DNA of 34,968 bases from Actinomycetota bacterium. Lineage in GTDB: Bacteria; Actinomycetota; Geothermincolia; Fen-727; Anoxymicrobiaceae. Below the pieces are notes generated by a model that did no database searches, had not been told where the DNA came from, and saw only the letters and a list, made by a program, of their open reading frames with translations. Positions 1,033 to 32,712 of the stretch are shown here, piece after piece. How positions within the stretch are numbered: position 1 is the first letter of the stretch; every line of letters begins with the position of its first letter. Position numbers and translations under genes: made by a program. Location: assembly GCA_018896525.1 (NCBI GenBank), contig JAHIMR010000054.1, forward strand, positions 1 through 34,968. Direction: 5' to 3'.

Positions 1033-4000
1033 TCAGTCGCTGTACCCCCCTATGGTATCGGTCCCCGCTCCCCGCTCGTTCCAGTACATGGCCCTCTCCA
1101 CCATTATCTTGCTTCCAGCGGTCTTGGAGGTGACCAGAACCGCGGCCCTTCCCTGTATCCCGGCGTCGGCCATGAAGTACGTCTTGCGGGAGTTGCTCCC
1201 CACCGTATCGGTGAAGGTTGCGTTCCCCGTCCCGTCGGGGGTGAGGTAGGAGATCTCTACCGTGACGTCTGTCGCGTTGGGGTTGGCTACCAGGGTGTAG
1301 GTCTCCCTGCCGTTTGAGGTCTCACCGTCAGGGAGGTAGAAGGTGGTGTGGGGGGCGGATAACCCGATAGAGTCGTGGCACGCCTCTCCGGTTCCGTTGT
1401 CCCAGTACATGGCCCTCTCGGCGATGATGGGCTGGGAGCCGTGGACCTGGGTGGAGAAGTCGCTTGCGGGGAGCACGTCGTTCACCCTTATGGTCTTCCT
1501 CGAGTTGGCAGGCATGGTGAACGGTGCCTGGGGCACCGCTCCTGATGATGTCATGTAGGTGACGGTGACGTCGGTGTCGGTGTCGTTGGGGTTCTGCACC
1601 AGCACGTAGGTGGTGAACCCCCAGTCGGTGGTGCCCTCGGCCAGGTAGTAGTTCTCCGCCGGGGAGGTGGTCCCGATGGAGTCATGTCCCTCCCGCTTGT
1701 TGTTCCGGTACATGGCCCTCTCCGGGATTACCGGGATGTCGGCCACCACCTTGAGGGATGCGTCGGCCTCCCCTATGTCGTTCGCCATGCTGTAGGTCTT
1801 GCGGGACTGTGCCGGTATCTTCTTCTCGAACGTCACCGGGTCCGCATCCTTCATCATGTAGGTGACCTGGGCGGTTGCCTCGGTGTTGTTGGGGTTCTGT
1901 ATGAGGAGCCAGCACTCGAACCCCCAGGCGGAGGAGCCCTCGGGTAGGTACCATGTGGTGGCGGGGGATGTCACCCCCACCGAGCAGTGTCCGTCGGGGG
2001 AGGGGGCACCGGATCCGGTCCAGGTCATGGTGCGGTCCACCGCTATTGATTTGCCCTCTTTGCACTCCACGTGAGCGGAGAAGTCCTTGTCTCCCAGGAT
2101 GCCTCTCGGGTTTACCGTGGCCTGGCTCATTGCGGGGAGGTCTATGTCCCCACCGGGCATAGCGCCCGCGTCTGTCATGTAGGTGACGGTGGCGCTTACC
2201 GCCTCGTTGTTGGGGTTCTGAATCGTCACGTAGGTGGAGAACCCCCAGTCGGTGGAGCCCTCGGCCAGGTACCAGATGGGGGTTGTTGCCTCGCTGACCG
2301 TAAAGGCGCCGGCCAGTTCCCTGCTCTTGCCGTCGGTGTTCTCCACCTTGACCGCGTACGTGCCCGCCGCAGCCCCGTTGAGGTCGAAGGAGCAGGTTAT
2401 CTTCTTGCTTGATGCCACGTTCACGCCGGTTGCGTTTATGGTGCCTGCTCCCGTCTCCCCTGAGCCGGAGGGGCCGGCGAGTTGAACGGTCGCCCCGTTC
2501 CGGAAGCCGGTGCCAGCGAGGTTGGTGATGGAGACCGTTCCATCGTTAGTCGCGCCAGGGGGGATAATGCCAGTGACCGTGGGTGCGGGGTAGTCCACGG
2601 TAAACTCAACCCCGTTGCTGGTGCCGTTCGATGTGGTGACTCTTACCGGACCGTCAGTCGTGCCGGCGGGCACAGTACAAATCACCTCGGTATCCGACCA
2701 CGACTCGTAGGCGGTCACGGCCGTACCGTTGAACGTCACCTGCGACGTCCCCTTGGAAAACCCGAAGTCCGACCCCGAGATCGTCACCTGGGCACCCGGT
2801 TGGGCTATGCATGGTGCTACCTGGTCAATATGCGGAGTTGAGGAAATATCGCTCAACGCACGGCAGGCATCCACCCTGCCGTGCCCGAAGTAATCATCCC
2901 GCCCCGGGTCCCCCAGGTCCTCCGCGTTGTCCTCGATTACCTGCTCCACCTGCGAAGCGGTAAGCGATGGGTCGAAAGAAAAGATAAGGGCCGCGGTCCC
3001 GGCAACCATCGGTGTCGCGGCGGATGTGCCGGAGCCGTAACCGTAACCCCCGGACTTGGTAGTGGAGTACACGTACCACCCCGGGGCGGTGACATCGACG
3101 CTCGCGTTATGGTTGGAGAACGAGGCCTTCTCGTCCAGGTTGTTGGTGGCACCCGCGCCTATGACATTCTCGCAGTTTGCGGGATAGTACGTTGTTTCGT
3201 CCCCGTCGTTTCCAGCCGCCGCGACCAGCACCACGCCCTGCCCGTGAGCGTAGTCTATCGCGTCCTGCTCCGTGCTCGACTCGAACGGGCTGCCCAGGCT
3301 CATGCTTATAACCCTCGCCCCGTTGTCGGCGGCGTAGTATATCGCCTCGATGATCTCGTCGGTTGCCAGAACCCCGCTGGGCACGCCGCTACCGTCCAGC
3401 ACCTTCAACGGCATTATCCTCGCGCCCGGGGAGACGCCGGCGATACCCTGGCTGTCGCTCTCGGCGCCGGCTATCCCGCTTACGTACGTCCCGTGGCCGT
3501 TATCGTCCCTGGGATTCGAGTTGGGGTTGGTCTTGAAGTAATAATCGTCGGAGCCGCTGCCGTTCCACGTCCCACCGTCCCAGTGATGCTGCTGGCCCTC
3601 GTCGTAAACGTCACCGTTCTCAGCTCCCCGGTTCTCGTAGAGCATGTAATGGTTCGCCGGGTCCTGGTTGTCAGTTTCAATCACCAGGTAGTAGTTCGTC
3701 CCCGACCCCAGCGGTACCGGAGAGGACAGCGGTTCGTAGACTACGTACATGAACGAACCTAACTCAGCCGGGCTGACGGTGTACGAGGATATGTCCGCCC
3801 CGTAGAGGTCATCCCTTACCGAGATCTTGATCTCCCCCGCCGGATCGCCTACCTTGTCCAGGAGGATCCCTACGTGGGTAAGCTCGCAGCCGGCCCCGGT
3901 TATCGACTGGGCAACCGTCCGGGTTGCGGCGCTATCGCCGAAGGGGCGCGACATGAACACCGGCATCCCGCCCGAAAGGTAGTAGAAGACCTTCTGCGAA

Positions 4001-4665
4001 ATGCCGACGAAATTGTATCCACCTACATCGTCCACGTATCCGTTGATATCATCGTCAATGCCGTTGCCGGGAATCTCCCCCGGGTTCACCCATGTCTTCG
4101 ATTCCAGGTCCGGGTGGTCGAAGTCTATCCCGGAGTCCAGCACCGCCACCGTTATCTCGTTGGTCTGCCCGTCCTCGATATCCCAGGCGCTCACCGCGTG
4201 GATGTCCGCCCCCGGGGTTCCATCGACACCTCCGATGTTCTGGCCGGTGTTGTGAAGGCCCCACTGGTTGGGGAAGCCGGGGTCTGGTGGGGTGTACATG
4301 GCCCGCCTGAGAAAGTTAGGCTCGGCGCTGATAACCGCGTCGCTCGCCTCAAGCAAACGGACGGCCTCATCGATTTCCACGCCCGTCCGGAGATTGATAA
4401 GCCGGGTGTGCCTGTTCCCGGCAGGACCTATCTCCTTTAGCGTCGCCCTCGCGCCCGCCTCCCTCGTGATGCGACCTCTTTCGGTCGCGCTGATGCCGTC
4501 TCTGAACCGCACCAGCACCTCCCCCTGCCTGCGTGAGACGGAGATGCTACGCTCGCATGCCGTCCCTGCGCTCACCACGGCCGGGGCCGCCGCCGATAAC
4601 GCCGCCGCCGCAACCATTGCCGCAACGGTTATCAGGGCCGCGACAGTTGCTCTTAAACGCGACAT
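1033..4665 (-). CDS. Secreted multidomain subtilisin-like serine peptidase (S8 family) with an N-terminal I9-like propeptide, a large insertion between the catalytic Asp and His, IPT/TIG-like Ig domains, and a C-terminal module of 4-5 tandem ~110-aa repeats of unknown family
   Basis: The signal peptide is MSRLRATVAALITVAAMVAAAALSAAAPAVVSA. The catalytic triad motifs are VAVLDSGID (Asp), DDNGHGTYVSG (His) and GTSAATPMVAG (Ser). An IPT-like domain reads VTISGSDFG...VTFNGTAVTAYESWSDTEVICTVP. The C-terminal repeats read WYLAEGSTDWGFSTYVTIQNPN...VTYMT...DFSAHVE...IAVDRTMTW, and the last one ends ...ERAMYWNERGAGTDTIGGYSD. The long ORF 1033..4716 starts at TTG. The first ATG, at 4665, gives a standard signal peptide. 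Confidence 0.85.
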   Translation of the reverse strand: MSRLRATVAALITVAAMVAAAALSAAAPAVVSAGTACERSISVSRRQGEVLVRFRDGISATERGRITREAGARATLKEIGPAGNRHTRLINLRTGVEIDEAVRLLEASDAVISAEPNFLRRAMYTPPDPGFPNQWGLHNTGQNIGGVDGTPGADIHAVSAWDIEDGQTNEITVAVLDSGIDFDHPDLESKTWVNPGEIPGNGIDDDINGYVDDVGGYNFVGISQKVFYYLSGGMPVFMSRPFGDSAATRTVAQSITGAGCELTHVGILLDKVGDPAGEIKISVRDDLYGADISSYTVSPAELGSFMYVVYEPLSSPVPLGSGTNYYLVIETDNQDPANHYMLYENRGAENGDVYDEGQQHHWDGGTWNGSGSDDYYFKTNPNSNPRDDNGHGTYVSGIAGAESDSQGIAGVSPGARIMPLKVLDGSGVPSGVLATDEIIEAIYYAADNGARVISMSLGSPFESSTEQDAIDYAHGQGVVLVAAAGNDGDETTYYPANCENVIGAGATNNLDEKASFSNHNASVDVTAPGWYVYSTTKSGGYGYGSGTSAATPMVAGTAALIFSFDPSLTASQVEQVIEDNAEDLGDPGRDDYFGHGRVDACRALSDISSTPHIDQVAPCIAQPGAQVTISGSDFGFSKGTSQVTFNGTAVTAYESWSDTEVICTVPAGTTDGPVRVTTSNGTSNGVEFTVDYPAPTVTGIIPPGATNDGTVSITNLAGTGFRNGATVQLAGPSGSGETGAGTINATGVNVASSKKITCSFDLNGAAAGTYAVKVENTDGKSRELAGAFTVSEATTPIWYLAEGSTDWGFSTYVTIQNPNNEAVSATVTYMTDAGAMPGGDIDLPAMSQATVNPRGILGDKDFSAHVECKEGKSIAVDRTMTWTGSGAPSPDGHCSVGVTSPATTWYLPEGSSAWGFECWLLIQNPNNTEATAQVTYMMKDADPVTFEKKIPAQSRKTYSMANDIGEADASLKVVADIPVIPERAMYRNNKREGHDSIGTTSPAENYYLAEGTTDWGFTTYVLVQNPNDTDTDVTVTYMTSSGAVPQAPFTMPANSRKTIRVNDVLPASDFSTQVHGSQPIIAERAMYWDNGTGEACHDSIGLSAPHTTFYLPDGETSNGRETYTLVANPNATDVTVEISYLTPDGTGNATFTDTVGSNSRKTYFMADAGIQGRAAVLVTSKTAGSKIMVERAMYWNERGAGTDTIGGYSD

Positions 4666-4886
4666 CCTTATACTAACCTGATCCTTCGCTTGTCCATCCG
4701 CCACCAGGGCTTTCAACCCACTTCAACTCGTATAACGTATAACGCAACAAGAACCTTACAAGATACCTGGATAATCACCGGATAAGCGGGCGCCGGTTAT
4801 AATAGTCACGTCCGGTTACGTTCCTTGCACGGCAGGTTGACCGGCCCGGTGGTCAACCCCGTGCCCGCGACAAGGAGGCTTTCAAG

Positions 4887-7143: not shown

Positions 7144-10100
7144 TTAGAAGCCGATTACGTCGTGGCCACCGGTCCAGGCGCCTTGGTAGTTGAAGTACAT
7201 GGGGCGCTCCACCACTATCTTGATTCCGTTGGTTGACTCCACCTTCGCCGAGAAGTCATGAGCGGCGTCGTCACCCACACCCAGCGTATCCTTAACGGCA
7301 ACCGTCGAGCGGGAATGCGCCCCGACCGTCACATCCTGTTCCCGTGTAGTTCCATCGCCCTTCATGTAGGTTATCTTCACCTCGGCAACGGCAAGCTCCG
7401 GGTTCTCGATACAGATGTAGGAATCGAAGCCGGGGCGGCAGGTGCCCTCGGCGAAGTAAAAGGCCGTCTTCGGCGCGAGCGCGCCCACCACGTCCGAACC
7501 CCCCGTCCAGCCGGCGGCACCGTAGGAGAAGTACATGGGCCGCTCGGCTATGATCTCCTGCAGGTTGGTTGACTCCACCTGGCAGGAGAAGTCGTGAGCG
7601 GCGTCGTCACCTTCCCCAAGGACGTCTTTTACCCTCACGGTTGAGCGTGTCCGTGCTCCCACAACCAGTGACTGCTCGACACTGTTTCCGTCACCCTTCA
7701 AGTAGGTGATATCGACATAGGAATCGTTGGCCTGCGGGTTCTGGATACAGATGTAAGGGTCAAAGCCGGGGCGGCAGGTGCCCTCGGCGAAGTAGAAACA
7801 GTTACGTGGCGCGAGCGCGCCCACCACGTCGTGCCCGCCCGTAATTACACCGTGATAGTTGAAGTACATCGGCCTTTCGGCAACTATCTTTACATCGCTG
7901 GTTGACTCAACCTTCGCCGAGAAGTCATGGGCGGGATCGTCCCCCACGCCAAGGGCATCGTTCACCGTAACGGTTGAGCGGGAGTGCGCGGCAACAACGA
8001 GATCCTGCTCCTGGGTCATGCCGTCGCCCTTCATGTAGGTGATCTTCACCTGCGCCTCAGTATCATCCGGGTTCTGTATGCAGAAATAAGGTTCGAATCC
8101 GGGGCGGCAGGTGCCCTCGGCGAAGTAGAACGTGGAGGCCGGCGCCAGCGCCCCCACAACGTCCGAACCGCCAGTCCAGGCGCCACCGTAGTTGAAGTAC
8201 ATCGGCCTCTCGGCGATGATCTCTTCCCCGTTGGTGCACTCCACCTTGGCCGAGAAATCGTGCGCGGGGTCGTCCCCCTCCCCCAGGGTATCCTTCACCA
8301 CGACGGTTGAGCGGGAGTGCGCGGGAACGTCGAGCACCTGTTCTTGTGTGGTTCCGTCGCCCTTCATGTAGGTAATCTTCACATCAGCATCGTTGTCACA
8401 AGGATCCTGGATGCAGATATAGGGGTCGAAGCCGGGGCGGCAGGTGCCTTCCGCGAAGTAAAACATGAAGTCGGTTACCGTGAATCTCTCGCCCTCCGAT
8501 GTGCCCCAGGGGCATCTCACTTCTACGGCACCGGTGAAGCTTCCAAACGGAACAGAGCACAGTATCTCGGAATCAGACCAGGAAATATACTCTGTGACCG
8601 GTATGCCGTTGAAGGTGACATCCGAAGAACCCCTGGTGTTTCCGAAGTTCCCCCCACTTATGGTCACCTGCGTTCCCACCGTACCGGAGATTGGCGTAAT
8701 GCTGTGTACGAAGGGAGGATGAGCCGGCGCTTCGTAGATCGTCAGGCCTCCCGCCAGGGGATGAGGGACCTCCGCCCCAGTGATGACGTTTACGTCCCGT
8801 TCGCCGGGGGTCGCCGCAACGCCCACTTTTATCTTCGCGGTGGCGTGAGCGGAGTCGGTTACCGTGGTTGATTCAACGGCAACGCCTTCCCCCGAGATGT
8901 CCGCTTTACTCACGCCATCCTCGAAGTGGGTGTTGTTTCCCAGTACGTGAAGATCAACCTCGTGGCCCTGGACTACCTCGGTGGGAGAACAGGCCTTGAT
9001 GGCCGGCGCTTCGGTAAAGACGGTGAAAGCGCGTTTGAGGGGGTAAGGCTCCCTGGTTCCGGTGATAACGTTGACGTCCCGGGCGCCCGCGGGCGCGTCC
9101 TGGGCAATCGTTATGTTAGCGGTAGCGTGGTTGAGATCCTGTACGGTGGTGGAGTTCACGGTGATGCCATCGCCGGAGAAAGTGGCTACGCTGACCCCGG
9201 GGGTGAAGCTCTCGCCGTCACCCAGGATCTTGACGTCCACCGTTTCTCCGGGTTTGCCCGACCCGGGATGCACCGAGGCGATAAAGAGGGCCTGGACCTG
9301 TGTGTTGACGGTACCGCCGGGCGGAATCTCATCCATCTTGACGCGCAACGTCATATAGCTCGTCCTGGGACGCCAGTACTCCAGGAGGGTTCCGTTGGAT
9401 ATGCGGTAGCGGCCGACATCGCCTATATCGTCCATGGGGAAATCGACTACCGTACTGTCAAGGTTCACCGGAGGGTCACCCTCCGTGAAGTAGTTGGTGC
9501 ACCTGAAACTCTTGTTGACGCTATCGGAATCCGTTGAGTCAAAGCCCGCGTCCACCGCCGGTGTATCGAGGTCCGCCAGCGCCAGATACGCCTCCGCGAA
9601 GTTCGAGTGCTTCTTTATCTGGGTGTCCTTGTAGGTGGGCAGGGAGTAGCAGTCACCCTTGTAGTTGTACCTGCCAACCGCTCCATCTTCAATGAATACC
9701 TGGCGCATTCCCGGGTACTCGATTGTCCCGAAGCTGGTGGTAGTGGTGTTGAGGTGTGTCACCTTCTTGGGATGGGACGTGTCGATGAAAACATCGTCCC
9801 TGTGGACATGCCCGCTTATCGCCAGGCCGACACCGTAGTCATGAGTGTACTTCATGAGGTCGTCCATCTGGGCCTGGCTCGCCCAGGTGTCCCCGCTTGA
9901 TTTTCCGTAGAACGGATGGTGGACCGCCATCATCAACAACTCATACTTGCCCTTGACCTTGGCGAGGTCGCCTAACATCCACCCCCACTGGTTTTCCCTC
10001 ATCGCCCCGTTCGCATCAACCGGGCACAAGTAGGGCCATATATCCATGCTGGAGCGCTGGCCCTTCCCCAGTAACGCCCAGGGGTCCCTCTGCGGTTTGT

Positions 10101-11187
10101 CGTACCCATTCATGCCGGTGATGTGGAGCTTGTCGCCGTAATCCCACCCGCCGAACCGGGGGCCTATCATGGTGTGCCAGATGTGCGCTCCGTCCTGATG
10201 ATGCTTGTGTGTGTGGGGTTGGTTTCCCCCATTCTGCTTCTGGAGGTTGTAGCAGTCGTGGTTGCCCGGTATGCAAAAGACCGGAACCTCGAGCCGCAGT
10301 AGCTGTTCGTAGGCCTGACTGTATTCTCCGTCCCAGTCGGGCGCCTCTCCGGCGAAGTCGGTCCTCTTGTCCGCCGGCCAGTATAGAGGACAAAGGTCAG
10401 CGGCAAACTCGGGAACCCCGAAGGGCAGGTCGCCGGTCATGATCACAAAGTCGGGGTTCAACCTGTTCACGTTGTCCAGCGCCTTCAGGTTGTAGAGGTA
10501 GTTCTTGAACTGGCTGGGATCCGGGTACGGCCCCGGCACGAAGGCGATGCCGGGCCCCCGCGGGTCATTGACGTGAAAGTCGGTGATCTGTATGAAGTTG
10601 TAGTCGTCCTTGTACTCGTCTATCACCTGTACCGCGTGGGGTTGGGAATCGGTTATGGTGGTTGCCCCATCCGCGGTCACCTGCAGGTCATAGAGATCCG
10701 AGCGTGCACTCGAGGGCACCTTCACTGTAACGTGCCATACCTCCTTGCCGGCCCACGGCCCCGACCACTCTCCCTTGGCCGGCGATTCCGGCGAAGCGCC
10801 TTTCGCCCACGCCAACGACTCAGCCCTGACCGCGTTCTGGACCGGCAGGTCCGCAACGGTCGGCCACTGGTCATTGGATGAAAGGAGCCTGACGTCCCAG
10901 TCGGAGACATCGGGCTGCGATCCGCCCGCGCCCTTGCCAACATAGTCGAACTCCAGGGTAAACGTCTCTCCCTTCTTTCGGATCACCGGGCAGCCGATTG
11001 TGGGATAGTCAAGGTGGGTTATCTTCCAGGGCCAGCCGTCGGGTATGTTGACCTCGGTCGGCACGGGTGCGGCCTCCGCCTGCCCGGCCGGCAGCATGGC
11101 GATAGACATACCCATAGCCAGCAGTAACACCAGCGCTGCACAAACGACCCTGGACAAAACGACCGGCTTCCTGATTCTCTCTACCAT
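7144..11187 (-). CDS. Secreted giant surface protein: calcineurin-like metallophosphoesterase head, Ig-like/IPT domains, and five C-terminal ~115-aa repeats of the shared module
   Basis: The signal peptide is MVERIRKPVVLSRVVCAALVLLLAMGMSIAMLPAGQAEAAP. The metallophosphatase motifs are ITDFHVND, IMTGDLPFG, CIPGNHDCYN, MAVHHPFYG and ISGHVHRDD. An IPT-like domain reads VTISGGNFG...VTFNGIPVTEYISWSDSEILCSVP. The five C-terminal repeats read YFAEGTCRPGF[DE]PYICIQ[ND]P...VKITYMKGDG..EQ...V.AHSRSTV.V.D.LG.GDD.AHDFSAKVE....I.AERPMYFNY. The start is taken as the ATG at 11187, which precedes the signal peptide. The ORF also extends upstream to 11268. Confidence 0.85.
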   Translation of the reverse strand: MVERIRKPVVLSRVVCAALVLLLAMGMSIAMLPAGQAEAAPVPTEVNIPDGWPWKITHLDYPTIGCPVIRKKGETFTLEFDYVGKGAGGSQPDVSDWDVRLLSSNDQWPTVADLPVQNAVRAESLAWAKGASPESPAKGEWSGPWAGKEVWHVTVKVPSSARSDLYDLQVTADGATTITDSQPHAVQVIDEYKDDYNFIQITDFHVNDPRGPGIAFVPGPYPDPSQFKNYLYNLKALDNVNRLNPDFVIMTGDLPFGVPEFAADLCPLYWPADKRTDFAGEAPDWDGEYSQAYEQLLRLEVPVFCIPGNHDCYNLQKQNGGNQPHTHKHHQDGAHIWHTMIGPRFGGWDYGDKLHITGMNGYDKPQRDPWALLGKGQRSSMDIWPYLCPVDANGAMRENQWGWMLGDLAKVKGKYELLMMAVHHPFYGKSSGDTWASQAQMDDLMKYTHDYGVGLAISGHVHRDDVFIDTSHPKKVTHLNTTTTSFGTIEYPGMRQVFIEDGAVGRYNYKGDCYSLPTYKDTQIKKHSNFAEAYLALADLDTPAVDAGFDSTDSDSVNKSFRCTNYFTEGDPPVNLDSTVVDFPMDDIGDVGRYRISNGTLLEYWRPRTSYMTLRVKMDEIPPGGTVNTQVQALFIASVHPGSGKPGETVDVKILGDGESFTPGVSVATFSGDGITVNSTTVQDLNHATANITIAQDAPAGARDVNVITGTREPYPLKRAFTVFTEAPAIKACSPTEVVQGHEVDLHVLGNNTHFEDGVSKADISGEGVAVESTTVTDSAHATAKIKVGVAATPGERDVNVITGAEVPHPLAGGLTIYEAPAHPPFVHSITPISGTVGTQVTISGGNFGNTRGSSDVTFNGIPVTEYISWSDSEILCSVPFGSFTGAVEVRCPWGTSEGERFTVTDFMFYFAEGTCRPGFDPYICIQDPCDNDADVKITYMKGDGTTQEQVLDVPAHSRSTVVVKDTLGEGDDPAHDFSAKVECTNGEEIIAERPMYFNYGGAWTGGSDVVGALAPASTFYFAEGTCRPGFEPYFCIQNPDDTEAQVKITYMKGDGMTQEQDLVVAAHSRSTVTVNDALGVGDDPAHDFSAKVESTSDVKIVAERPMYFNYHGVITGGHDVVGALAPRNCFYFAEGTCRPGFDPYICIQNPQANDSYVDITYLKGDGNSVEQSLVVGARTRSTVRVKDVLGEGDDAAHDFSCQVESTNLQEIIAERPMYFSYGAAGWTGGSDVVGALAPKTAFYFAEGTCRPGFDSYICIENPELAVAEVKITYMKGDGTTREQDVTVGAHSRSTVAVKDTLGVGDDAAHDFSAKVESTNGIKIVVERPMYFNYQGAWTGGHDVIGF

Positions 11188-11428
11188 TTCAGCAACACCT
11201 TTCCCTCGAGGCTGCCCGGTGTCCCGTCTCATAAATACAATGGCATTCGAACGCCGCTGCATCCACACCGGCCGCGTTCCGCTCCCTCGAAGTACTCCAA
11301 GAGTACGACTTCAGTCGCGCGCCTTGCCGGAGCGGCGCTTCGACGCTCTCGGTGCGTCACCGTACTTATGAGAAGGGACACTGCTTTCACCGCCGTAGCA
11401 CCTGCCGCGAATCCGCCGCGGCGGTTTT

Positions 11429-13801
11429 CTAGTTCACGTCGAACCCCACGGAGCCGGTGGCGCACTGCCTTTCGTTGTAGTACAGTGCCCTTTCCACCAC
11501 CACCGGTCTATCCGATGTAACCCGCGTGGAAACGTTATATGTCTCGACTGTGTCAGCTATATTGACGCTTACCCTGCACCCGGGCGCCACGTCTATACCT
11601 GGTCCCTCCTTCTCGCCCTCACCGGTCATGTAGGTTACTGTCACGTGAGCGGTCTCCGCCCCCGGGTTCTGCACCAGTATCCAGGTCTCGAAGCCACCGT
11701 AGGTACTGCCTTCGGCCACATACCAGGCCACGCCCGTGTTCGTAGAGCCTACCGAGCCGGTGGCGCACTGCCTGTCGTTGTAGTAGAGCGCCCTCTCCAC
11801 CACCACCGGGTTGTCGGAGGCCACCCGTGTTGACACCGTGTATGTCTCCACCGTGTCGGCCACGTTCACGCTCTGCCTGCATCCCGCACCCACGGTGAGC
11901 GTGGGGCCCGCAACCTCCTCCCATTCGGTCTGGTACGTAAGTTCAACCTTGGCTGGCTCGCTCCCCGGGTTCTGCACCAGTATCCAGGTCTCGAAGCCGC
12001 CGCAAGTGCTCCCCTCGGCCACGTACCAGTTAGTGTCCGTGTCGGTGGCCCCTACCGAGCCGGTGGCACACTGCCTTTCGTTGTAGTAAAGCGCCCTCTC
12101 CACCACTACCGGGTTGTCCGACGTCACCCCGGTTGATACCTCGATCGTCTCAACGGTATCCGCCACGTTCACGCTCCGCCTTGTCCCCGGCTGTACCGTT
12201 ATGGTGGGGCCGAACGCCATCCCCTTGTCGGTGTAATATTTCAGGTTCACCTCCGCCGGTTCGCTCCCCGGGTTCTGCACCAGTATCCATGTCTCGAAGC
12301 CGCCGGAGGTGCTGCCTTCCGCCACGTACCAGTTGGTATCGGCGCTGGTGGCACCCAGCGAGCCGGTGGCGCACTGCCTTTGGTTGTAGTAGAGCGCCCT
12401 CTCCACCACCACCGGCCTATCGGAGTTGACCTCGGTGGAGACATCAAAGCTCTCCACGGTATCCGCCACGTTCACGCTCACCCTGCTACCGGGTGGCACG
12501 TCGGTTGCGGGACCCTCCTTCTCGCCCTCGCCGGTCATGTAGGTCAGTGTCACGTGAGCGGTCTCGGCCCCCGGGTTCTGCACCAGTATCCATGTCTCGA
12601 AGCCGCCGTAGGTACTGCCTTCGGCCACGTACCACGTCGCCCCGGCGAAGCCGTTGAACGAGGCCTGGGTCCAGTCGGTGTACGGCGGACCACCGGCGAC
12701 CGCCGTCCTCCACACCTCGCATCCCCTCTCGAGGTCCGTGGCCCCCACGAAGAGGTTCGAGCCGTATGCGGCCATTGAAGAAGCGTCCAGGTTGTTGGTG
12801 TCCCCGAAGCCGCCGGTATTGACCTGCTCGAAGCTGTTTCCGTCGGCGGAGCGCCAGACCCCGCAGCCGTAATCATGGTTGTAGCTCCCCACGTACAGGC
12901 AGGAGTCATAGACGCTCATGCTTGACGCGTCAACGTTGTGCTTGCTCCCGAAGCCGTCGCCGCCCAGTTGCGTCCAGTCGGCCGGGGTCGGCCCGTCGCG
13001 GCGCCATATCTCGCAGCCGGTCCCGTCGTTCCAGGTACCCGCGTACATCTTCCCGTCAAACGATTGGAGGGAAGAGACGGTGCCGTTGTGCCCGTCGGAG
13101 AAGCCGTCGTCATTCACCTGGTTGTAGTTGACGCCGTCAGCGGAGCGCCAGACCTCGCACCCGGTGACCGTGTTGTGGGTCCCGACGTACAGTTCAGACC
13201 CGTTCACCGCCATAGAAGAGGCGTCCAGGTTGTTCGTGTCCCCGAAGCCGCCGGTGCCGACCCGGTTCCAGGTACCGCCGTCCGCCGAGCGCCAGACCTC
13301 GCAGCCGGACTGGTGGTTCTCGAGACCTGCGTACAGCGCTCCATCATAGACGGCCATCGACGAGACACTGTGGTTGTGGCCGCTCCCGAACCCCCCGGTT
13401 TGGACCCGTGTCCAGTCTGTCCCGTCGTATCGCCAGACCTCGCAGCCGCTGACCCAGTTCATTGTCCCGGCGTACAACTCGGAGTTGAACACCGCCATCG
13501 AGGCGACCCCGTCGTTGTTGGCGTTCCCGAACCCGCGGGTGGCGACCCTGGTCCAGTCGCTTCCGTCGTAGCGCCAGACCTCGCAGCCGCTGAGCCAGTG
13601 GAGCGTCCCCGTGTACAGATCCGTCCCGTACGAGGCCATCGCATTGATGGCACACTGCTGCCCGTTGCCACCGGCGAACCAGGGCACCGGGTCGCCCGCC
13701 GCACCGGTTTCCATTCCGCCCGCCAGTGAAAACGACCCCAGGAGCAGGCCAGCCGTCATTATGAGAACCGACAGCCAGACCATAATTCTCATTCGTCTCA
13801 T
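11429..13801 (-). CDS. Secreted surface protein: beta-propeller of ~8 blades (47-aa repeats ...GFG..NN..ASSMAV....LY.GT.N...GCEVWR.DG..W..V) plus four C-terminal repeats of the shared module
   Basis: The signal peptide is MRRMRIMVWLSVLIMTAGLLLGSFSLAGG. The GCEVWR[YS].DG repeats are visible by eye and number seven to eight. The C-terminal repeats read WYVAEGST.GGFETWILVQNPG.E.A.V.L.Y.T......GP...V..G.R.SVNVADTVE...VST.V.SD.PVVVERALYYN. An AGGGGG RBS lies 6 nt upstream of the ATG at 13801. Confidence 0.8.
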   Translation of the reverse strand: MRRMRIMVWLSVLIMTAGLLLGSFSLAGGMETGAAGDPVPWFAGGNGQQCAINAMASYGTDLYTGTLHWLSGCEVWRYDGSDWTRVATRGFGNANNDGVASMAVFNSELYAGTMNWVSGCEVWRYDGTDWTRVQTGGFGSGHNHSVSSMAVYDGALYAGLENHQSGCEVWRSADGGTWNRVGTGGFGDTNNLDASSMAVNGSELYVGTHNTVTGCEVWRSADGVNYNQVNDDGFSDGHNGTVSSLQSFDGKMYAGTWNDGTGCEIWRRDGPTPADWTQLGGDGFGSKHNVDASSMSVYDSCLYVGSYNHDYGCGVWRSADGNSFEQVNTGGFGDTNNLDASSMAAYGSNLFVGATDLERGCEVWRTAVAGGPPYTDWTQASFNGFAGATWYVAEGSTYGGFETWILVQNPGAETAHVTLTYMTGEGEKEGPATDVPPGSRVSVNVADTVESFDVSTEVNSDRPVVVERALYYNQRQCATGSLGATSADTNWYVAEGSTSGGFETWILVQNPGSEPAEVNLKYYTDKGMAFGPTITVQPGTRRSVNVADTVETIEVSTGVTSDNPVVVERALYYNERQCATGSVGATDTDTNWYVAEGSTCGGFETWILVQNPGSEPAKVELTYQTEWEEVAGPTLTVGAGCRQSVNVADTVETYTVSTRVASDNPVVVERALYYNDRQCATGSVGSTNTGVAWYVAEGSTYGGFETWILVQNPGAETAHVTVTYMTGEGEKEGPGIDVAPGCRVSVNIADTVETYNVSTRVTSDRPVVVERALYYNERQCATGSVGFDVN

Positions 13802-20044: not shown

Positions 20045-20998
20045 CTACTTTTCGCCCTTACTTTTCTTTCTCCGGCGCCCCACGAGCTTGAACAGTACGA
20101 ATAACACAGCGAGCGGGACAAGGAAGATGAGGAGCAGGGATGTCGGACAGGTGCTGAAACCGGCCGTCCCGGTCCTGGTGGTGTCAAGCTCCAACAGACT
20201 GGGCCCGTACCGGATGTCGACCTTGACGCTGTATGAGCCCAGCAGTGGAGGGTCGGGGATGACCCCCTGGTAGTACCGCTCGGAATCGGGCAATACGGTC
20301 ATCTCTTTCAGTTCCACCGTGCCGTGGCCCCACCCGAAGGAGGGAGTGTAGGTGAGCTTTCCCCTGATGGTGAGGTGTACGTTCCCCGTGTTCTTGAAGG
20401 CCACGCGATACTTCGGCGGTGACACGGGAAGTCGGAGGAGTTCTTTCGTGGGCCAGAACCACTTGCTCTCAACGGAGACCGATGTTATTTCACCTTCTCG
20501 CAGTATCTCTCCCGGGATGGTAATGAGTGCCAGGGAGGCTATCTGTATAACGTCGGTGCCGCGGTGGGACGTAGCGTCGGTGGTCTCCGGAACCTGCCGA
20601 AAGAGGACCGCCCCGAAGTGCCCCCCCGGCTCCGCGTCGGGCGGTGCGGTGGCGGTGAACCTGCTGACTACCCTCTGTCCCGCCGGCACCGTGAACTCCG
20701 GAACGTCGACGGAGAGCCATTTGGCACAGGAGTACGGGTAATGTCCCGGCTCCTCGAACACGCAGGTGCCTTCGGGCTTGACGTAGAAATCCATAAAATG
20801 GAGTGCAAGCCGCTGGTCCGCGGTGCCGCGGTTTTCGACGTAGATCTCAAACTCCCGCGAGGTGCCCGGTTCCATTGTGAGTTCGAACTTGACCGGGGAC
20901 ACGGCTACGTTGAACTCCTGGGCAACGGCGTGGAGCGCCGGAGCGAAACAGGAGATAACCAGAAATATGAATGCCGAAACTGCCGCTGTCTTTCTCAT
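20045..20998 (-). CDS. Cell-surface protein, paralog C of the cluster. It has a signal peptide, a beta-rich ectodomain and a C-terminal TM anchor (DUF916/DufA-like architecture). It lacks the acidic tail.
   Basis: It is 317 aa. The signal peptide is MRKTAAVSAFIFLVISCFAPALHAVAQEF. Conserved blocks shared with the 421- and 429-aa paralogs are FEEPGHY.YSCA.WLS, PPDAEPGGHFGA, NTGNVHLT..GKLTYTPSFGWG and GSYSVKVDIRYGPS. The C-terminal TM LLLIFLVPLAVLFVLF is followed by RRRKKSKGEK*. The conserved terminal motif survives only out of frame downstream (19987..20070). Confidence 0.8.
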   Translation of the reverse strand: MRKTAAVSAFIFLVISCFAPALHAVAQEFNVAVSPVKFELTMEPGTSREFEIYVENRGTADQRLALHFMDFYVKPEGTCVFEEPGHYPYSCAKWLSVDVPEFTVPAGQRVVSRFTATAPPDAEPGGHFGAVLFRQVPETTDATSHRGTDVIQIASLALITIPGEILREGEITSVSVESKWFWPTKELLRLPVSPPKYRVAFKNTGNVHLTIRGKLTYTPSFGWGHGTVELKEMTVLPDSERYYQGVIPDPPLLGSYSVKVDIRYGPSLLELDTTRTGTAGFSTCPTSLLLIFLVPLAVLFVLFKLVGRRRKKSKGEK

Positions 20999-21015
20999 TG
21001 TTTTCCCATAATAGT

Positions 21016-21046
21016 AGAAATCAAGAGGAGTTGCCTCTTGATTTCT
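21016..21046. promoter_or_regulatory. Perfect 13-bp inverted repeat AGAAATCAAGAGG-AGTTG-CCTCTTGATTTCT. It lies 18 bp upstream of the paralog-C start codon, between paralogs B and C.
   Basis: Seen directly in the sequence. No U-tract follows on the coding strand. It could be an operator or an RNA stem-loop (processing or attenuation). Confidence 0.4.
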
Positions 21047-21117
21047 GAATCCTCTGTCCTTTTCCGCGGGAGTTCACGCCTGCTGGTGTGAGGTCGTTGG
21101 TCATGTCGACGGTGGGA

Positions 21118-22383
21118 TTATTTCTTTCGTCCCCTCTTGAACAACCTTCGGAGATTCAACTTGCCTGAACCCCGTTCGCGGAGTTTCTCTTTTTCCCCGG
21201 GCTCTTTCTGTCCCTCGTCGTCGATGTCGTCTTGCTCACCGCCATCGCCGGAATCCTCGTCCCCGGGTATTTCCTCTTTCTCGTCCTCCAACAGTTCGGC
21301 CCAGAGCTCCTCCAGTCGCGGTTCCTTCTCGCCCCTTTCTTCCTTCTCGCCCGCTTCCACTTCAGGCGCTTTTTTCTTTCGTATGAAGAATCTTACCAAC
21401 TTGACCGCAACGACAGGAAGCGAGATAAGGATGATGAGTGCCAGAAGGAGGAAGGCCGGGTAGACGTTGAAGGCGGCGGAACCGGTCTTAGAAGTATCGA
21501 ACTCGTACATATTGGGGCCGTACATGACTTCAACCGTTACATCGTAGGACCCAAGGAAAGGTGGATCCGGAAGGGTCCCCTCGTAGTATCTCTTAGTGTG
21601 GGGCAAAATCACCATTTCGGGAAGCTGGATAGACCCCATTCCCCAGCCGAAAGAAGGAGTGTAGTACAGCACCCCTTTGGTGGTAAGGTGCACGTTACCG
21701 GTGTTATTGACTACCACCCTGTACCCGGGTGACGACCCTCCGATTACCGGTATCTTCTTGGAAGGCCAGAACCACTCGCTCTGGACCGAAACCGACTCTA
21801 TCTCGCCCTCCCTTACTATTAACCCCGGAATGGTTACCAATACCAGGGCGCCAACCCTGCCGGTTGACCGCACCACCGTTTCACCTTCCACCTCCGGTTG
21901 TAGAATTACTTCAAAAAATATGATGGCGTTATGAGTTCCCGGTTCCGCGTCGGGTGGGACCGCGACCGAAAACGGTATCGTCTCTTCCCGGCCCGCGGGT
22001 AACTCGAACTCCTTTATTTCCGTAGTAATCCACCTCGCGCAGGAAAAGGAGTAATGGCCGGGTTCCTCGAACGAAGTCTTGTTGTCCGGCGTTACCGTGT
22101 AATCCATTTCATAGACTCTTAACCGCAGGTCATTGGTGCTCTTGTTCAACAAATTGATATCAAGAGCCTGGGTGGTGCCGGGTTCTATCGTAAGCTCGTT
22201 TATGGATGGCCATAGCTTGATATCGAATTCCTGCGCAAAGCAGGGCGGACAATGGATGCCGGAAAGCCCCAGCGCGATACTGAGCATTATGGTAATCAGT
22301 ACCGGTTTCTTGATTTTCATGAACAAAGAACAACCGGGACCATTTTGGTCCCGGTTGTTGGGCTTGTTCTTACTCGTAGCCAC
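21118..22383 (-). CDS. Cell-surface protein, paralog B. It has a signal peptide, a beta-rich ectodomain, a TM anchor, a poly-acidic cytoplasmic linker and the conserved terminal motif GSGKLNLRRLFKRGRKK.
   Basis: It is 421 aa. The N-terminal region is MATSKNKPNNRDQNGPGCSLFMKIKKPVLITIMLSIALGLSGIHCPPCFAQEF. The real start may be the internal Met (MKIKKPV...). It has the same conserved blocks as the paralogs. The TM is FLLLALIILISLPVVAV, followed by KLVRFFIRKKK. The E/D-rich linker is about 90 aa, and the terminus reads ...GEKEKLRERGSGKLNLRRLFKRGRKK. Confidence 0.85.
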   Translation of the reverse strand: MATSKNKPNNRDQNGPGCSLFMKIKKPVLITIMLSIALGLSGIHCPPCFAQEFDIKLWPSINELTIEPGTTQALDINLLNKSTNDLRLRVYEMDYTVTPDNKTSFEEPGHYSFSCARWITTEIKEFELPAGREETIPFSVAVPPDAEPGTHNAIIFFEVILQPEVEGETVVRSTGRVGALVLVTIPGLIVREGEIESVSVQSEWFWPSKKIPVIGGSSPGYRVVVNNTGNVHLTTKGVLYYTPSFGWGMGSIQLPEMVILPHTKRYYEGTLPDPPFLGSYDVTVEVMYGPNMYEFDTSKTGSAAFNVYPAFLLLALIILISLPVVAVKLVRFFIRKKKAPEVEAGEKEERGEKEPRLEELWAELLEDEKEEIPGDEDSGDGGEQDDIDDEGQKEPGEKEKLRERGSGKLNLRRLFKRGRKK

Positions 22384-22409
22384 TCGCGCCTAATGCTTCA
22401 AATGCTTCA

Positions 22410-22937
22410 CTAAATCGCGGTTACGGTATAGACCTGGGTCGGAGTTAAGACCGGGAAAGCATAGGGGCCAGCCCATATATTGAAATCTTTGCTCAGTTGG
22501 AAGTTGAAATCCCAGCTCTTGACCCCTCGGTCTCCGTGGGCGAGTAGGACACCCATGTTAGCCTGGAAGCCTCCGGTCGCGACATCGAAGGTGACACCGG
22601 CGGACGGATTATTCTGCAGGAACGTGAACTGAGTATCACCGATAGTCCGCCCTGCAGCGGTTCCGGATCCCGTAAGGATGGGCGTGGTTGTCAACGTGAA
22701 GTTCCACAGCGTGTTGCTCTTTATTGCCACCGCGGAGGTCATTGTCGCGGTGGTCACTGGATCCGTCGGTACGATAGCGCCAAAATCAATAGCGGTAGGA
22801 GTCATAGTGAAATTGAGAGTGGGGCTGTAGGTCGCGGTAACCGTAGGACTCGCTGTCTGCGCAAATCCTCCAACCCCCATAAACGCGATTAGAAGGACAC
22901 CCGCGACAGCACTTGCGATAATAAGCCTCTTCTTCAT
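22410..22937 (-). CDS. Small secreted Thr/Ala-rich beta protein (175 aa), cassette partner of paralog B. It may be a WxL-like or pilin-like surface protein.
   Basis: The N-terminus is MKKRLIIASAVAGVLLIAFMGVGGFAQTA (signal peptide). The mature part is Thr-rich (...AVAIKSNTLWNFTLTTTP...NIWAGPYAFPVLTPTQVYTVTAI). It shares the blocks AVxxKSNxxW and a C-terminal aromatic/W motif with the 166-aa protein at 24691..25191. The start ATG is at 22937, with a GGAGGTG RBS. The long ORF extends to 22964. Confidence 0.75.
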   Translation of the reverse strand: MKKRLIIASAVAGVLLIAFMGVGGFAQTASPTVTATYSPTLNFTMTPTAIDFGAIVPTDPVTTATMTSAVAIKSNTLWNFTLTTTPILTGSGTAAGRTIGDTQFTFLQNNPSAGVTFDVATGGFQANMGVLLAHGDRGVKSWDFNFQLSKDFNIWAGPYAFPVLTPTQVYTVTAI

Positions 22938-22994
22938 TTCCGCACCTCCTGAATCTCTGACCATTTTACGGTCACCTATGAACTATAATTACAC

Positions 22995-23170
22995 ATTGAT
23001 TATAACGGCACTTATGCTCAGCTGTTACTGTTTGAAGGTATTAAGGAACGAACCGGTCATATGAAGTAACGAATGTACCGTGACGGGGAACGAATGACCA
23101 AATGGGGGATAAGAATATATCACCCGATCGGGGGATGAATCCACTCTTTTCCTTGTTTTTCCCCCGAGTG
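22995..23170 (-). promoter_or_regulatory. Conserved cassette leader, copy 1. It has three direct repeats G[GT]AACGAA at 21-bp spacing (23044, 23065, 23086), symmetric elements (GGTCAT...ATGACC, CCGTGACGG, CATATG), and a degenerate GC palindrome followed by a T-rich tract.
   Basis: It is about 80% identical to 25320..25495. It lies 60-230 bp upstream of the small secreted gene at 22937. Confidence 0.5.
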
Positions 23171-23235
23171 AGCGCACGCCTGGTGCCAGGCACCGTTGTT
23201 GCGGGCACCGTTGTTGCGTCATGCAGACGGTGGGC

Positions 23236-24525
23236 TTATTCCTTTCGTCCCCTCTTGAACAACCTTCGGAGATTCAACTTGCCTGAACCCCGTTTGTGGA
23301 GTTTCTCTTTTTCCCCGGGCTCCTTCTGTCCCTCGTCCCCGTTGTCCTCCCGCTCCCCGGCGTCGCCGGAATCCTTTTCATCCTCCTCTGGTAGCACCTC
23401 TTCCTCGACTTCCTCCCCTTCAGATACCTCTTCTCCCCCGGCTTCTTCCTTCTCCTCTTCTTGCTCTTCTTCGGGTTCTTCTTCTGGTTTCTCCTCCCAG
23501 ATAGTCGAAAATGATGTCCAGGATCTCTCTTCTGGCTCCTCCTTTTCCACCTCTTCTTTCCCCGGTGCCTTCTTACCCCGCTTCCGCTTGATGAACACAA
23601 CGGTAGCAGCAATCACCCCCAAGAGGACCAGCACCAGAAGGATTGCCAGAATAGGGTACGAGTTAAATCCGCAACTCATGGTCTTGGTCGTATCAAACTC
23701 AAAGAGGCTGGGGCCGTAAGAGATTTCGGCCTTCAGCTTGTACGAGCCAAAAAGCGGCGGTTTCGGTATTTCTCCCTTAAAATTCCTGGTGGTCCCGGGT
23801 AGCACCGTCGTCTCGGGCAGGTCGATGGTGCCAACTCCCCAGCCGAAAGAGGGTCTATAGGTCAGCTTACCCATAATGGTGAGATGGACGTTCCCCTTGT
23901 TTTCAAAGACCACGCTGTAACGAGTCGGTGAACGGGGAAAAACAGGAAGCCGACGAGTTGGCCAGAGCCAGTTGCTGGTTGCCGAAACCGACTTTATTAC
24001 ACCATCGCGTACTATCTCCCCCGGAACGGTAATCAAGACCATTGCGGCGATGCGGGCTGAGACCTTTACGGGTTCCTCCGCTTCTTCGGGGGCGGCCTGC
24101 TGGAAGATTATAGCCCCGTAGTGCCCACCCGGTTCCGCTTCGGGCGGGACATGCAACCCGAAGGTCTTGGTCGCGCTACTGGTCTCCGCCGTACCGCGAC
24201 CAGGTAACGTGAGTTCGGGGGTCTCGGTGGAGAGCCAGGTAGCACACGAATAAGAGAAATGCCCGGGCTCTTCGTAGACGACAGTGTTGTCGGGCTTCAC
24301 GTAGTAGTCCATGAAGTAGACATCGAGAGCATGGCTCTTTTCGGTGAAGTTTTCAACAGTTATATCGAACTCACTGGAAGCACCCGGATCGGCGGTGAGC
24401 TCCAGCTTGGAGGGAGAAACTCTCACGTGGAACTCTTCCTGGGCGTAGGAGACGGTCGCCGGGAGCGAGATTGAAACGATGAGCGCCAGTAGCAGTGAAA
24501 GCGCGGCTTTTTTCATGGTCTTCAA
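23236..24525 (-). CDS. Cell-surface protein, paralog A. It has a signal peptide, a beta-rich ectodomain, a TM anchor, a poly-acidic cytoplasmic linker and the conserved terminal motif GSGKLNLRRLFKRGRKE.
   Basis: It is 429 aa. The signal peptide is MKTMKKAALSLLLALIVSISLPATVSYAQEEF. It has the conserved paralog blocks. The TM is ILAILLVLVLLGVIAATVVF, followed by IKRKRGKK. The acidic linker reads (EEKPEEEPEEEQEEEKEE...). The last ~80 nt are almost identical to the 3' end of paralog B. Confidence 0.85.
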   Translation of the reverse strand: MKTMKKAALSLLLALIVSISLPATVSYAQEEFHVRVSPSKLELTADPGASSEFDITVENFTEKSHALDVYFMDYYVKPDNTVVYEEPGHFSYSCATWLSTETPELTLPGRGTAETSSATKTFGLHVPPEAEPGGHYGAIIFQQAAPEEAEEPVKVSARIAAMVLITVPGEIVRDGVIKSVSATSNWLWPTRRLPVFPRSPTRYSVVFENKGNVHLTIMGKLTYRPSFGWGVGTIDLPETTVLPGTTRNFKGEIPKPPLFGSYKLKAEISYGPSLFEFDTTKTMSCGFNSYPILAILLVLVLLGVIAATVVFIKRKRGKKAPGKEEVEKEEPEERSWTSFSTIWEEKPEEEPEEEQEEEKEEAGGEEVSEGEEVEEEVLPEEDEKDSGDAGEREDNGDEGQKEPGEKEKLHKRGSGKLNLRRLFKRGRKE

Positions 24526-24690
24526 ATAAAAAAACCCTTCTGTTTTACACGTGTGTGTTTATATCGAAGATCATTACGCTAGCTCAGCTCGGCTCAGTAT
24601 CATAAAAAATTACAAATAATAAGACCGGCTCAATCTACCTGGCTGAGCAAACGTACTATTCAATTGATTTTGTGCGTTGGTCCCGGCTCA

Positions 24691-25191
24691 TCAGTTGCTG
24701 GCGGTATAGGTGTGACTACAGGTGTAGTTAGCGGCCACCTCGAGAAGCCACGCAGCCGCCGGCGTCAGGTCGACCTTGTAGGTGAACTGGCCGTCGAGAT
24801 AAGTTCCCCTTGCACCACTCAGGCATGTACCCGCGATGGTGGGGTATTGAAGGTTGGTGACTCCTGTAGCCCCAGTCGCAGTCGTGGTCAAAGTGAAGTA
24901 GGACGAGGGTATCGTATTTAGACCAGACGTCAGCAAGCCGCCCGTGCTCACCGTAACCGTCCAAGCAGCGTTACTCTTTACCGTTACCGCGAGAACATTG
25001 GTTTGCGAGGTGCCCGGGATAGCAGTAATGGCTGCGGTGCTGGGTATCGAGAATTCAAGCGCCGGGGCAATCCCAACAGTTGGCGTCACGGGGGCGGCTC
25101 CAGCCACCCAGGCTCCCATAAACATAGACAACACAAGCATTCCAACCAGTGTTACACCAGCCAATACGCAAAACTTATGTACCTTCTTCAT
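24691..25191 (-). CDS. Small secreted Thr/Ala-rich beta protein (166 aa), cassette partner of paralog A
   Basis: The N-terminus is MKKVHKFCVLAGVTLVGMLVLSMFMGAWVAGAAP (signal peptide). It contains ...AVTVKSNAAWTVTVSTGG...PAAAWLLEVAANYTCSHTYTASN. It is paralogous to 22410..22937. A GGAGGTGA RBS lies 7 nt upstream. Confidence 0.75.
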   Translation of the reverse strand: MKKVHKFCVLAGVTLVGMLVLSMFMGAWVAGAAPVTPTVGIAPALEFSIPSTAAITAIPGTSQTNVLAVTVKSNAAWTVTVSTGGLLTSGLNTIPSSYFTLTTTATGATGVTNLQYPTIAGTCLSGARGTYLDGQFTYKVDLTPAAAWLLEVAANYTCSHTYTASN

Positions 25192-30459: not shown

Positions 30460-30639
30460 GCCAACTCTCCCTGCCCCCGGCATGGGGGCTTGCCTCCCTG
30501 CCCCGTTCAAAGGCGCCACCCAGACCATTCGTTGCTTCTATTATAGACTATATCGGTTGCTTCCGCTGTTATCTGTAACCTATAACGGCCGTGGGCCCTT
30601 TGCGGATACCCCCCGGCGAGTCTCCCACCCCATAGCACC

Positions 30640-32668: not shown

Positions 32669-32712
32669 GGGTGTTCGGTTTGAAGACGAAGCGGCGTCGG
32701 CACAGTAGGCGC

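Follow-up and report, generated by a model that had tools for sequence, protein, structure and literature searches.

We found that four minus-strand open reading frames (ORFs) in a 34,968-nucleotide stretch of actinomycetotal DNA (contig JAHIMR010000054.1 of assembly GCA_018896525.1, family Anoxymicrobiaceae; the whole stretch is called the window below) share one C-terminal block of tandem repeats, and that the repeat is a beta-sandwich domain of the ASRT/TM1070 ('ASRAH') fold, which at the sequence level corresponds to DUF5719 (a domain of unknown function) in Pfam. The block holds four repeats in each of the proteins, and we refer to it as the tetrad. An original prediction, made from the letters of this DNA, had likened the shared C-terminus to the repeat modules that anchor surface proteins in other bacteria. 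Our analysis assigns a probability of about one half to the view that the tetrad is a non-covalent cell-envelope retention module.

The shared block was located with translations and a motif scan in the four ORFs listed in Table 1. Exactly four tandem repeats close each ORF, with openings that match [WFY]Y[LFV][AP][ED]G; the repeat period is 101-112 amino acids in all four proteins, and the last repeat reaches the stop codon. The expectation of 4-5 tandem copies was thus right about the tandem arrangement and wrong about the number. A six-frame scan of the whole window with a repeat hidden Markov model (HMM) recovered 16 units with E values of 1e-35 to 1e-42, and the next best E value was not below 5; since this model was built from the 16 units themselves, the independent evidence comes from Pfam. 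The idea of one module that forms the common end of four otherwise unrelated proteins therefore stands, with 16 copies and none elsewhere in the window. Columns Y5, G9, G14, P24, Y35, V72, R82 and G99 were invariant in 16 of the 16 aligned units, and N23 (the Asn of QNP) was nearly invariant (at least 90% conserved), with no gaps at N23/P24. Position 1 of the unit is W in nine units, F in five and Y in two. The motifs listed in the original prediction (WY.AEG, GF[ED]..QNP, VTYM, SR.T..V.D, DFS..V and ER.MY[WFY]) proved accurate, while its span for the first protein, 1033..2480, extends about 65 codons past the tetrad (1036..2283) and into the Ig-like stalk. The heads in front of the tetrads matched Peptidase_S8, Metallophos and PSII_BNR in Pfam, and the head of the fourth protein, named after its recurring GCEVWR residues, gave no Pfam match, in agreement with the claim that the heads are unrelated.

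Pfam identified the repeat family in all four proteins. PF18986 (DUF5719), whose cut-off is 26.2 bits, scored 67.4, 55.8, 51.5 and 79.2 bits, and it matched 13 of the 16 single units at E <= 1. The best matches of the window proteins covered profile positions 48-134 of 319, which is the repeat core, and consecutive repeats of their relatives aligned to profile positions ~43-318. The Pfam model for ASRT (Anabaena sensory rhodopsin transducer) also exceeded its cut-off in the metallophosphoesterase (28.1 bits versus 25) and reached 32-54 bits in the relatives P0245, P0242, P0374 and P0254, with P0245 highest at 53.9 bits. When the 16-unit profile was compared with all Protein Data Bank sequences there were four matches, led by ASRT (2II7, E 0.0024) and Thermotoga TM1070 (1NC7, E 0.074). 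AlphaFold2 modeled the S8 tetrad with a predicted local distance difference test (pLDDT) score of 95.6 and a predicted template modeling (pTM) score of 0.92, and the metallophosphoesterase tetrad with values of 89 and 0.89; Foldseek with the S8 tetrad model returned probability 1.00 for ASRT and TM1070 only.

De Souza, Iyer and Aravind defined the ASRAH superfamily in 2009 and divided it into three families: the stand-alone cytoplasmic tetramers ASRT and TM1070 (family 1), secreted N-acetylmuramoyl-L-alanine amidases of Chloroflexi (Roseiflexus, Chloroflexus, Herpetosiphon) with four ASRT-like domains (family 2), and dyads in a conserved actinobacterial cell-surface lipoprotein (family 3) (PMC2739507). 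Its hallmarks are a Trp that starts strand 1 and a near-invariant Asn that closes strand 2 with an ungapped tight turn (PMC2739507). Both are present here, the strand-1 Trp as the W/F/Y of WY.AEG and the strand-2 Asn as the N of QNP, and the repeats have the eight-stranded beta-sandwich with TM1070 topology. The fold, the hallmark residues and the profile links together place the repeats in the ASRAH superfamily. The 2009 study predicted that members bind sugar or peptidoglycan in a ligand cleft to whose walls the dimer interface contributes, and it drew this prediction from the cleft and from the fusion of tetrads to the amidases (PMC2739507). It also suggested that dyads and tetrads assemble in the manner of homo- or hetero-tetramers (PMC2739507). 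The original prediction had recognized no named domain in the repeat; this did not hold, given the DUF5719 scores above threshold, the ASRT/TM1070 fold and the secreted tetrads described in 2009. Its statement that the repeat does not match SLH, CWB2 or choline-binding repeats was borne out in Pfam. SLH, CWB2, choline-binding and LysM models gave no match, with whole proteins at E <= 0.01 or with single units at E <= 1, and membership in these families was rejected. The only wall-related Pfam name among the single units was WxLIP_PGBD, at a chance-level E of 0.17.

The copy number of the repeat turned out to be fixed. With the 416-residue S8 tetrad as the query (all matches were at most 728 amino acids long), 120 of the 120 closest database homologues had exactly four repeats, and in all 40 homologues among the matches listed the repeats ended 0-4 residues before the C-terminus. 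A HMMER scan of 1.84 billion cluster representatives yielded 8,252 proteins at E <= 0.001, 3,423 of them at E <= 1e-30. Among the 142 best new representatives, 130 had four repeats and eight had eight repeats, arranged as two tetrads; the other four were fragment-like or split matches. The last repeat lay at most 10 residues from the C-terminus in 133 of these 142. Of the 82 complete ORFs with repeats at 79 genomic loci, 72 contained four, and the remainder resembled pieces of disrupted genes. The number stays at four for diverged repeats and for repeats that are up to 93% identical to each other.

Consecutive repeats adjoin with gaps of only 0-3 residues between HMM matches. Based on the pTM values of the two four-repeat models, we read the chain as a fixed compact arrangement and not as beads on a string. 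The tetrad would then be a single-chain equivalent of the ASRT/TM1070 homotetramer, and a copy of this homotetramer within one molecule would explain why the repeats number four or, with two blocks, eight. Two-tetrad architectures were seen among the relatives P0242, P0244, P0245, P0246, P0249 and P0250: in some, the tetrads flank arrays of TIG domains, one following the signal peptide and one at the C-terminus, and others are proteins of ~900 amino acids that consist only of a signal peptide and eight repeats. Such proteins could be cross-linkers or lattice subunits.

Comparison of the four tetrads revealed three classes. Class A comprises the S8 and BNR tetrads, which are colinear: identities were 59% between their first repeats, 70% between the second, 62% between the third and 70% between the fourth, against 25-44% between repeats at different positions. 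The position-specific signatures (SQ and VDRTM.W in repeat 1, SR and ER.MYW in the others, PDG and G.ET in repeat 4) are conserved in more than 100 paralogues. Class A is an ancient ordered hetero-tetrad. In class B (metallophosphoesterase) and class C (GCEVWR protein) the repeats are homogenized within the tetrad, with 66-81% identity, and these tetrads share 28-44% identity with class A and with one another. Each class B repeat has three cysteines, two in FAEGTCRPGF..YICIQNP and one later. The Cys three residues before the conserved Asn corresponds to the pocket Cys of ASRT, where classes A and C have Leu. The nearest class was A for 86, B for 19 and C for 10 of the 130 four-repeat representatives, and each class was found on proteins of many different lengths. 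Concerted evolution within the genome was rejected as the reason why tetrads resemble each other, since the S8 tetrad was 82% identical to tetrads of other metagenome-assembled genomes (MAGs) and 66% identical to the BNR tetrad in the same window.

The tetrad is shared by many proteins in related organisms. Named relatives came from Actinomycetota MAGs, including Candidatus (Ca.) Geothermincolia, Ca. Anoxymicrobiaceae and Ca. Anoxymicrobium japonicum. Two short peptide patterns alone led to 416 confirmed class A tetrads in a set of species-representative genomes, a survey that used the class A tetrad alignment and is biased towards this class. Counted among the best 79 loci, the MAG JAHJCO01 had at least 22 tetrad loci and JAZDFZ01 at least 12, and at several loci two tetrad genes stood side by side. 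The heads of 66 complete proteins fell into 33 Pfam families: TIG (21), Peptidase_S8 (6), Metallophos (5), the DUF5122 propeller (4), then Peptidase_C25, beta-helix, PSII_BNR and the glycoside hydrolase families GH39 and GH5 (3 each), with fewer for the others. In 50 of 75 cases the closest tetrad sat on an unrelated head, and in no pair with homologous heads was the tetrad less conserved than the head (93% versus 47% in one pair, 91% versus 58% in another). These two observations indicate that the module has been shuffled among heads and is more constrained than they are.

Single relatives provided further observations on shuffling and on free tetrads. Two tetrads from different MAGs (L002 6001..7257 and L004 6001..7254) were 95% identical, and their heads, of 532 and 846 amino acids, had no BLAST similarity, which suggests recent module swapping or head replacement. 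One relative (P0351) combines an N-terminal tetrad (residues 49-482) with a PGA_cap domain of the CapA-like type involved in poly-gamma-glutamate capsule synthesis; this architecture, as read from sequence, may be a pointer from the module to an envelope-polymer enzyme. Two IMG/VR contigs predicted to be viral encode tetrad-only proteins with four repeats (L081, 5887..7353, 488 amino acids; L080, 5887..7275, 462 amino acids). The L081 protein begins with a clear signal peptide, and two ORFs downstream of its gene lies that of an Amidase_2 endolysin, the only neighbor recognized with PHROGs and Pfam. Free tetrads may be of use to phages, for instance in masking or binding a receptor on the wall. 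A tblastn search of GenBank phages with the tetrad gave no match, and the alignments from a fold search of predicted viral structures were all multi-domain ones without meaning, with template modeling scores of at most 0.26.

Each window protein starts with one strongly hydrophobic segment that follows basic residues. No LPXTG motif and no later membrane-like segment was found in the four proteins. In the larger sample, an N-terminal hydrophobic segment was present in 119 of the 142 tetrad-bearing representatives; many of the other 23 begin within a domain or repeat and look truncated, and a few start with Met and have no recognizable signal. These 142 representatives gave no clear evidence of cytoplasmic tetrad proteins, apart from what the few Met-starting ones may be. 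The adjective 'giant' in the original prediction is generous at lengths of 790-1643 amino acids. That prediction had also named two kinds of observation that would speak against an anchor, a match of the repeat to a known enzymatic domain and its occurrence in cytoplasmic proteins. No known enzymatic domain matches the repeat, and the cytoplasmic members of the superfamily are only its distant, single-domain relatives ASRT and TM1070, at 18-25% identity. In the metallophosphoesterase a stalk domain matched the NCBIfam model 'choice-of-anchor Z repeating domain' (37.5 bits versus a cut-off of 30). The name 'choice-of-anchor' marks domains that are normally followed by the anchor signal of a given lineage.

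Export without another anchor, a rigid terminal block, promiscuous sharing of this block and its conservation above that of the heads fit an envelope-retention module. In such a scheme, Sec-type signal peptides would export the proteins, which carry no other anchor, and the four repeats, essentially free of linkers, would pack into one rigid block, mostly at the extreme C-terminus and often behind an Ig-like (TIG) stalk. This block would bind a cell-wall glycan or a peptidoglycan element in clefts at the repeat interfaces. Non-covalent retention of this kind, in our view the most likely function, would allow each genome of the Geothermincolia-like Actinomycetota to present dozens of different enzymes and binders at the cell surface, as SLH and CWB2 triads do in Firmicutes. 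We infer the pseudo-tetramer geometry, the glycan binding and the envelope retention alike. The analogy to SLH and CWB2 anchors drawn in the original prediction fits both the architecture (signal peptide, head, Ig-like stalk and a block with a fixed number of repeats) and the published prediction of sugar or peptidoglycan binding (PMC2739507).

Several observations weigh against retention by glycan binding. The tetrads are acidic, with isoelectric points of about 4.3-4.6 and net charges of -22 to -34, and the classical triads that bind the wall are basic, so that attachment to anionic wall polymers by simple electrostatics seems unlikely. Three classes with a mutual identity of only 30-40% occur within one window of 35 kb, for which several ligands or partners are a better fit than a single anchor site. 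The window has no conserved neighboring gene for a glycosyltransferase or for ligand synthesis, and the tetrad is N-terminal or internal in 9 of the 142 relatives. The pseudo-tetramer geometry is drawn from two sources, the pTM values and the copy-number rule, and the sugar binding of secreted superfamily members is itself a prediction from 2009 (PMC2739507).

We considered four other explanations, which we rank in the order of docking, targeting of environmental glycans, allosteric sensing and a purely structural role. In the first of these, the tetrad would be a protein-protein docking or self-assembly module that plugs into an S-layer lattice or a scaffold in the manner of dockerin and cohesin, with no binding of a glycan. 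A compact, rigid and highly conserved block with position-specific surfaces suits this idea; head-less proteins made of a signal peptide and one or two tetrads could be the subunits of a lattice or scaffold, proteins with tetrads at both ends could cross-link it, and an acidic surface is compatible with cation-bridged protein lattices. We nevertheless consider docking unlikely, given that all functional proposals for the fold concern the binding of a small molecule or sugar in a cleft and that the amidase-fused tetrads of Chloroflexi point to the wall and not to a protein partner. Slightly less likely still is that the tetrad serves as a carbohydrate-binding module that directs enzymes to environmental polysaccharides or detritus instead of the cell's own envelope. 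Glycoside hydrolase heads do exist (GH39 and GH5, each 3 of 66), and several classes could mean several target glycans, but most heads (proteases, phosphoesterases, propellers, TIG-only proteins) are not carbohydrate-active and head-less tetrad proteins occur. Moreover, tetrads of the same class are 62-81% identical across unrelated heads and better conserved than the heads, which a housekeeping partner explains better than a substrate does.

A sensory role, in which binding of a small metabolite would modulate the attached head allosterically as proposed for the cytoplasmic ASRT, appears very improbable to us. Membership of the ASRT superfamily and the class B Cys at the ASRT pocket position would agree with it; however, non-enzymatic propellers and TIG arrays offer nothing obvious to regulate, the Ig-like stalk lies between tetrad and head, and the His of the ASRT signature SHEshChhN is not conserved. 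We give just as little credence to a passive module for structure or export (a folding nucleus, a protease-resistant cap or a spacer) that has no specific partner. The tetrad is indeed compact, beta-rich, confidently predicted and terminal, yet E, N, R and ER.MY, polar and aromatic residues of the motifs, show strong conservation in every repeat although the classes share only 30% identity, the tetrad is more conserved than the heads, and free tetrad-only proteins exist, two of them on predicted viral contigs.

The retention reading can be extended to a wider proposal, in which ASRAH tetrads would be the main non-covalent means of surface display in a deep-branching uncultured class (Ca. Geothermincolia and relatives), the single-chain copy of the ASRT homotetramer would explain the number four, the three classes would differ in the envelope ligands that they recognize, and phages would borrow tetrads in free form. 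We put this forward tentatively, with the odds somewhat against it. The secretion of ASRAH tetrads and the prediction that they bind sugar are already on record. The promiscuous and mostly C-terminal use on many head families, its scale, the strict quantization at four or eight even for near-identical repeats and the three classes appear to be undescribed. In the open-access literature we found no occurrence of 'DUF5719', 'ASRAH' in this sense only in PMC2739507, and, judging by titles and abstracts, nothing on the cell surface of Geothermincolia. If the tetrad is an anchor, it reveals the means by which a whole uncultured class of actinobacteria equips its surface with proteins, and a domain so far recorded only as a DUF and in the 2009 prediction would gain its first clear role in biology. 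The wider proposal, if true, would place another major class of envelope anchor next to SLH, CWB2 and choline-binding repeats. A clean structural hypothesis comes with the rule of four, namely that a homotetramer has been turned into one chain. The module could also mark the surface proteome of these organisms, and it could tag cells for labelling or capture from enrichments.

Table 1. Positions in the window of the four tetrad-bearing genes, their repeat blocks and the ORFs of the lower-GC stretch (aa, amino acids; -, minus strand).
Feature	Coordinates	Strand	Description
S8 subtilase gene	1033..4665	-	Probable ATG start at 4665 (MSRLRATV...), mechanical ORF 1033..4716 extends to 4716; signal-like segment, Peptidase_S8 (aa 186-613 of ORF), TIG (628-706), second Ig-like domain, tetrad
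S8 tetrad, class A	1036..2283	-	aa 812-1227; four diverged, position-specific repeats
S8 repeat 1 (107 aa)	1963..2283	-	SQ instead of SR; VDRTM.W instead of ER.MYW
S8 repeat 2 (101 aa)	1660..1962	-	WYLPEGSS.WGFE.WLL.QNP and PVIPER.MYR
S8 repeat 3 (103 aa)	1351..1659	-	YYLAEG and IAER.MYW
S8 repeat 4 (105 aa)	1036..1350	-	FYLPDG and G.ET.TLV.NPN; stops at stop codon
Metallophosphoesterase gene	7144..11268	-	Public annotation of 1347 aa puts the start near 11187; signal-like segment, Metallophos (224-490), three Ig-like/TIG domains, tetrad
Metallophosphoesterase tetrad, class B	7147..8472	-	aa 933-1374; four homogenized repeats, mutual identity 66-75%
GCEVWR protein gene (790 aa)	11429..13801	-	Signal-like segment, seven ~48-aa blades, tetrad directly after (no stalk)
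GCEVWR tetrad, class C	11432..12643	-	Four homogenized repeats, mutual identity 68-81%
BNR/Ycf48-like propeller gene (up to 1643 aa)	25597..30528	-	Signal-like segment, PSII_BNR-like propellers, Ig-like domains, tetrad
BNR tetrad, class A	25600..26871	-	Colinear with S8 tetrad
Lower-GC ORFs	20045..20998, 21118..22383, 22410..22964, 23236..24525, 24691..25191	-	No Pfam or PADLOC match in any

The head of the GCEVWR protein (12644..13801, minus strand) consists of seven repeats of ~48 amino acids with G-C-E-V-W-R in each, and it had no Pfam match at E <= 0.01. We presume that this head is a propeller with seven blades, of a type not described before. The other genes of the window encode an AMP-ligase, a hexapeptide transferase, an amino-acid ABC transporter, an EamA transporter, an SPFH protein and Tad-like proteins, and gave no hint of a dedicated secretion or ligand-synthesis system. 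The stretch 20045..25191 has a lower GC content (0.52-0.57, versus about 0.60-0.65 elsewhere in the window) and may be a foreign island. Directly after a TadE-like ORF (32413..33102) lies an ORF (33103..33945) whose N-terminus is Tad/TadE-like and which also encodes a peptidoglycan hydrolase domain of the NlpC/P60 type; to judge from its sequence, it is probably an unusual fusion of a pseudopilin-like segment of pilus assembly and a wall hydrolase.

Among known systems, the secreted Chloroflexi amidases of ASRAH family 2 are close in kind, since they belong to the same fold superfamily, are secreted and carry tetrads, as the window proteins do. In contrast to these amidases, the tetrad described here is a promiscuous and mostly C-terminal module on 33 Pfam head families, with dozens of paralogues per genome and three classes. 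The amidase domain itself was found neither in the four window proteins nor in the 25 most frequent of the 33 head families of the 66 relatives. The best match to a sequence family is PF18986, for which all four window proteins lie above the gathering threshold, and this family appears to correspond to the family 3 lipoprotein. That lipoprotein has a lipobox Cys and extensions around its dyad, and its gene neighborhood includes WhiB, a glycosyltransferase and an inactive zincin (PMC2739507). The window proteins, however, match the repeat core only, without the family-specific N- and C-terminal extensions, and they carry a tetrad and not a dyad. By eye, and without a formal lipobox scan, no lipobox Cys was seen after the hydrophobic segments of the four proteins, and the WhiB, glycosyltransferase and zincin genes are not present in the window. 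Orthology to the DUF5719 lipoprotein was rejected on these grounds of architecture and gene neighborhood.

ASRT (2II7) and TM1070 (1NC7) are single-domain, cytoplasmic proteins that assemble from four chains and are 18-25% identical to the repeats, whereas the window proteins are multidomain and have signal peptides. In addition, the pocket signature SHEshChhN of ASRT is replaced by GF[ED]T[YW]..[LIV]QNP in the window repeats: at the pocket positions, classes A and C have E/D for the His and L/V/I for the Cys, and class B keeps the Cys and not the His. SLH and CWB2 triads are the non-covalent wall anchors of Firmicutes surface proteins, in which a fixed number of repeats forms a pseudo-symmetric block that is better conserved than the variable functional regions. 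The tetrad differs from these triads in its unrelated fold and sequence, in having four repeats and not three, and in being acidic and not basic. It nevertheless resembles them in its fixed, small number of tandem repeats and in forming a block that is common to many paralogous surface proteins with variable parts and is conserved above those parts.

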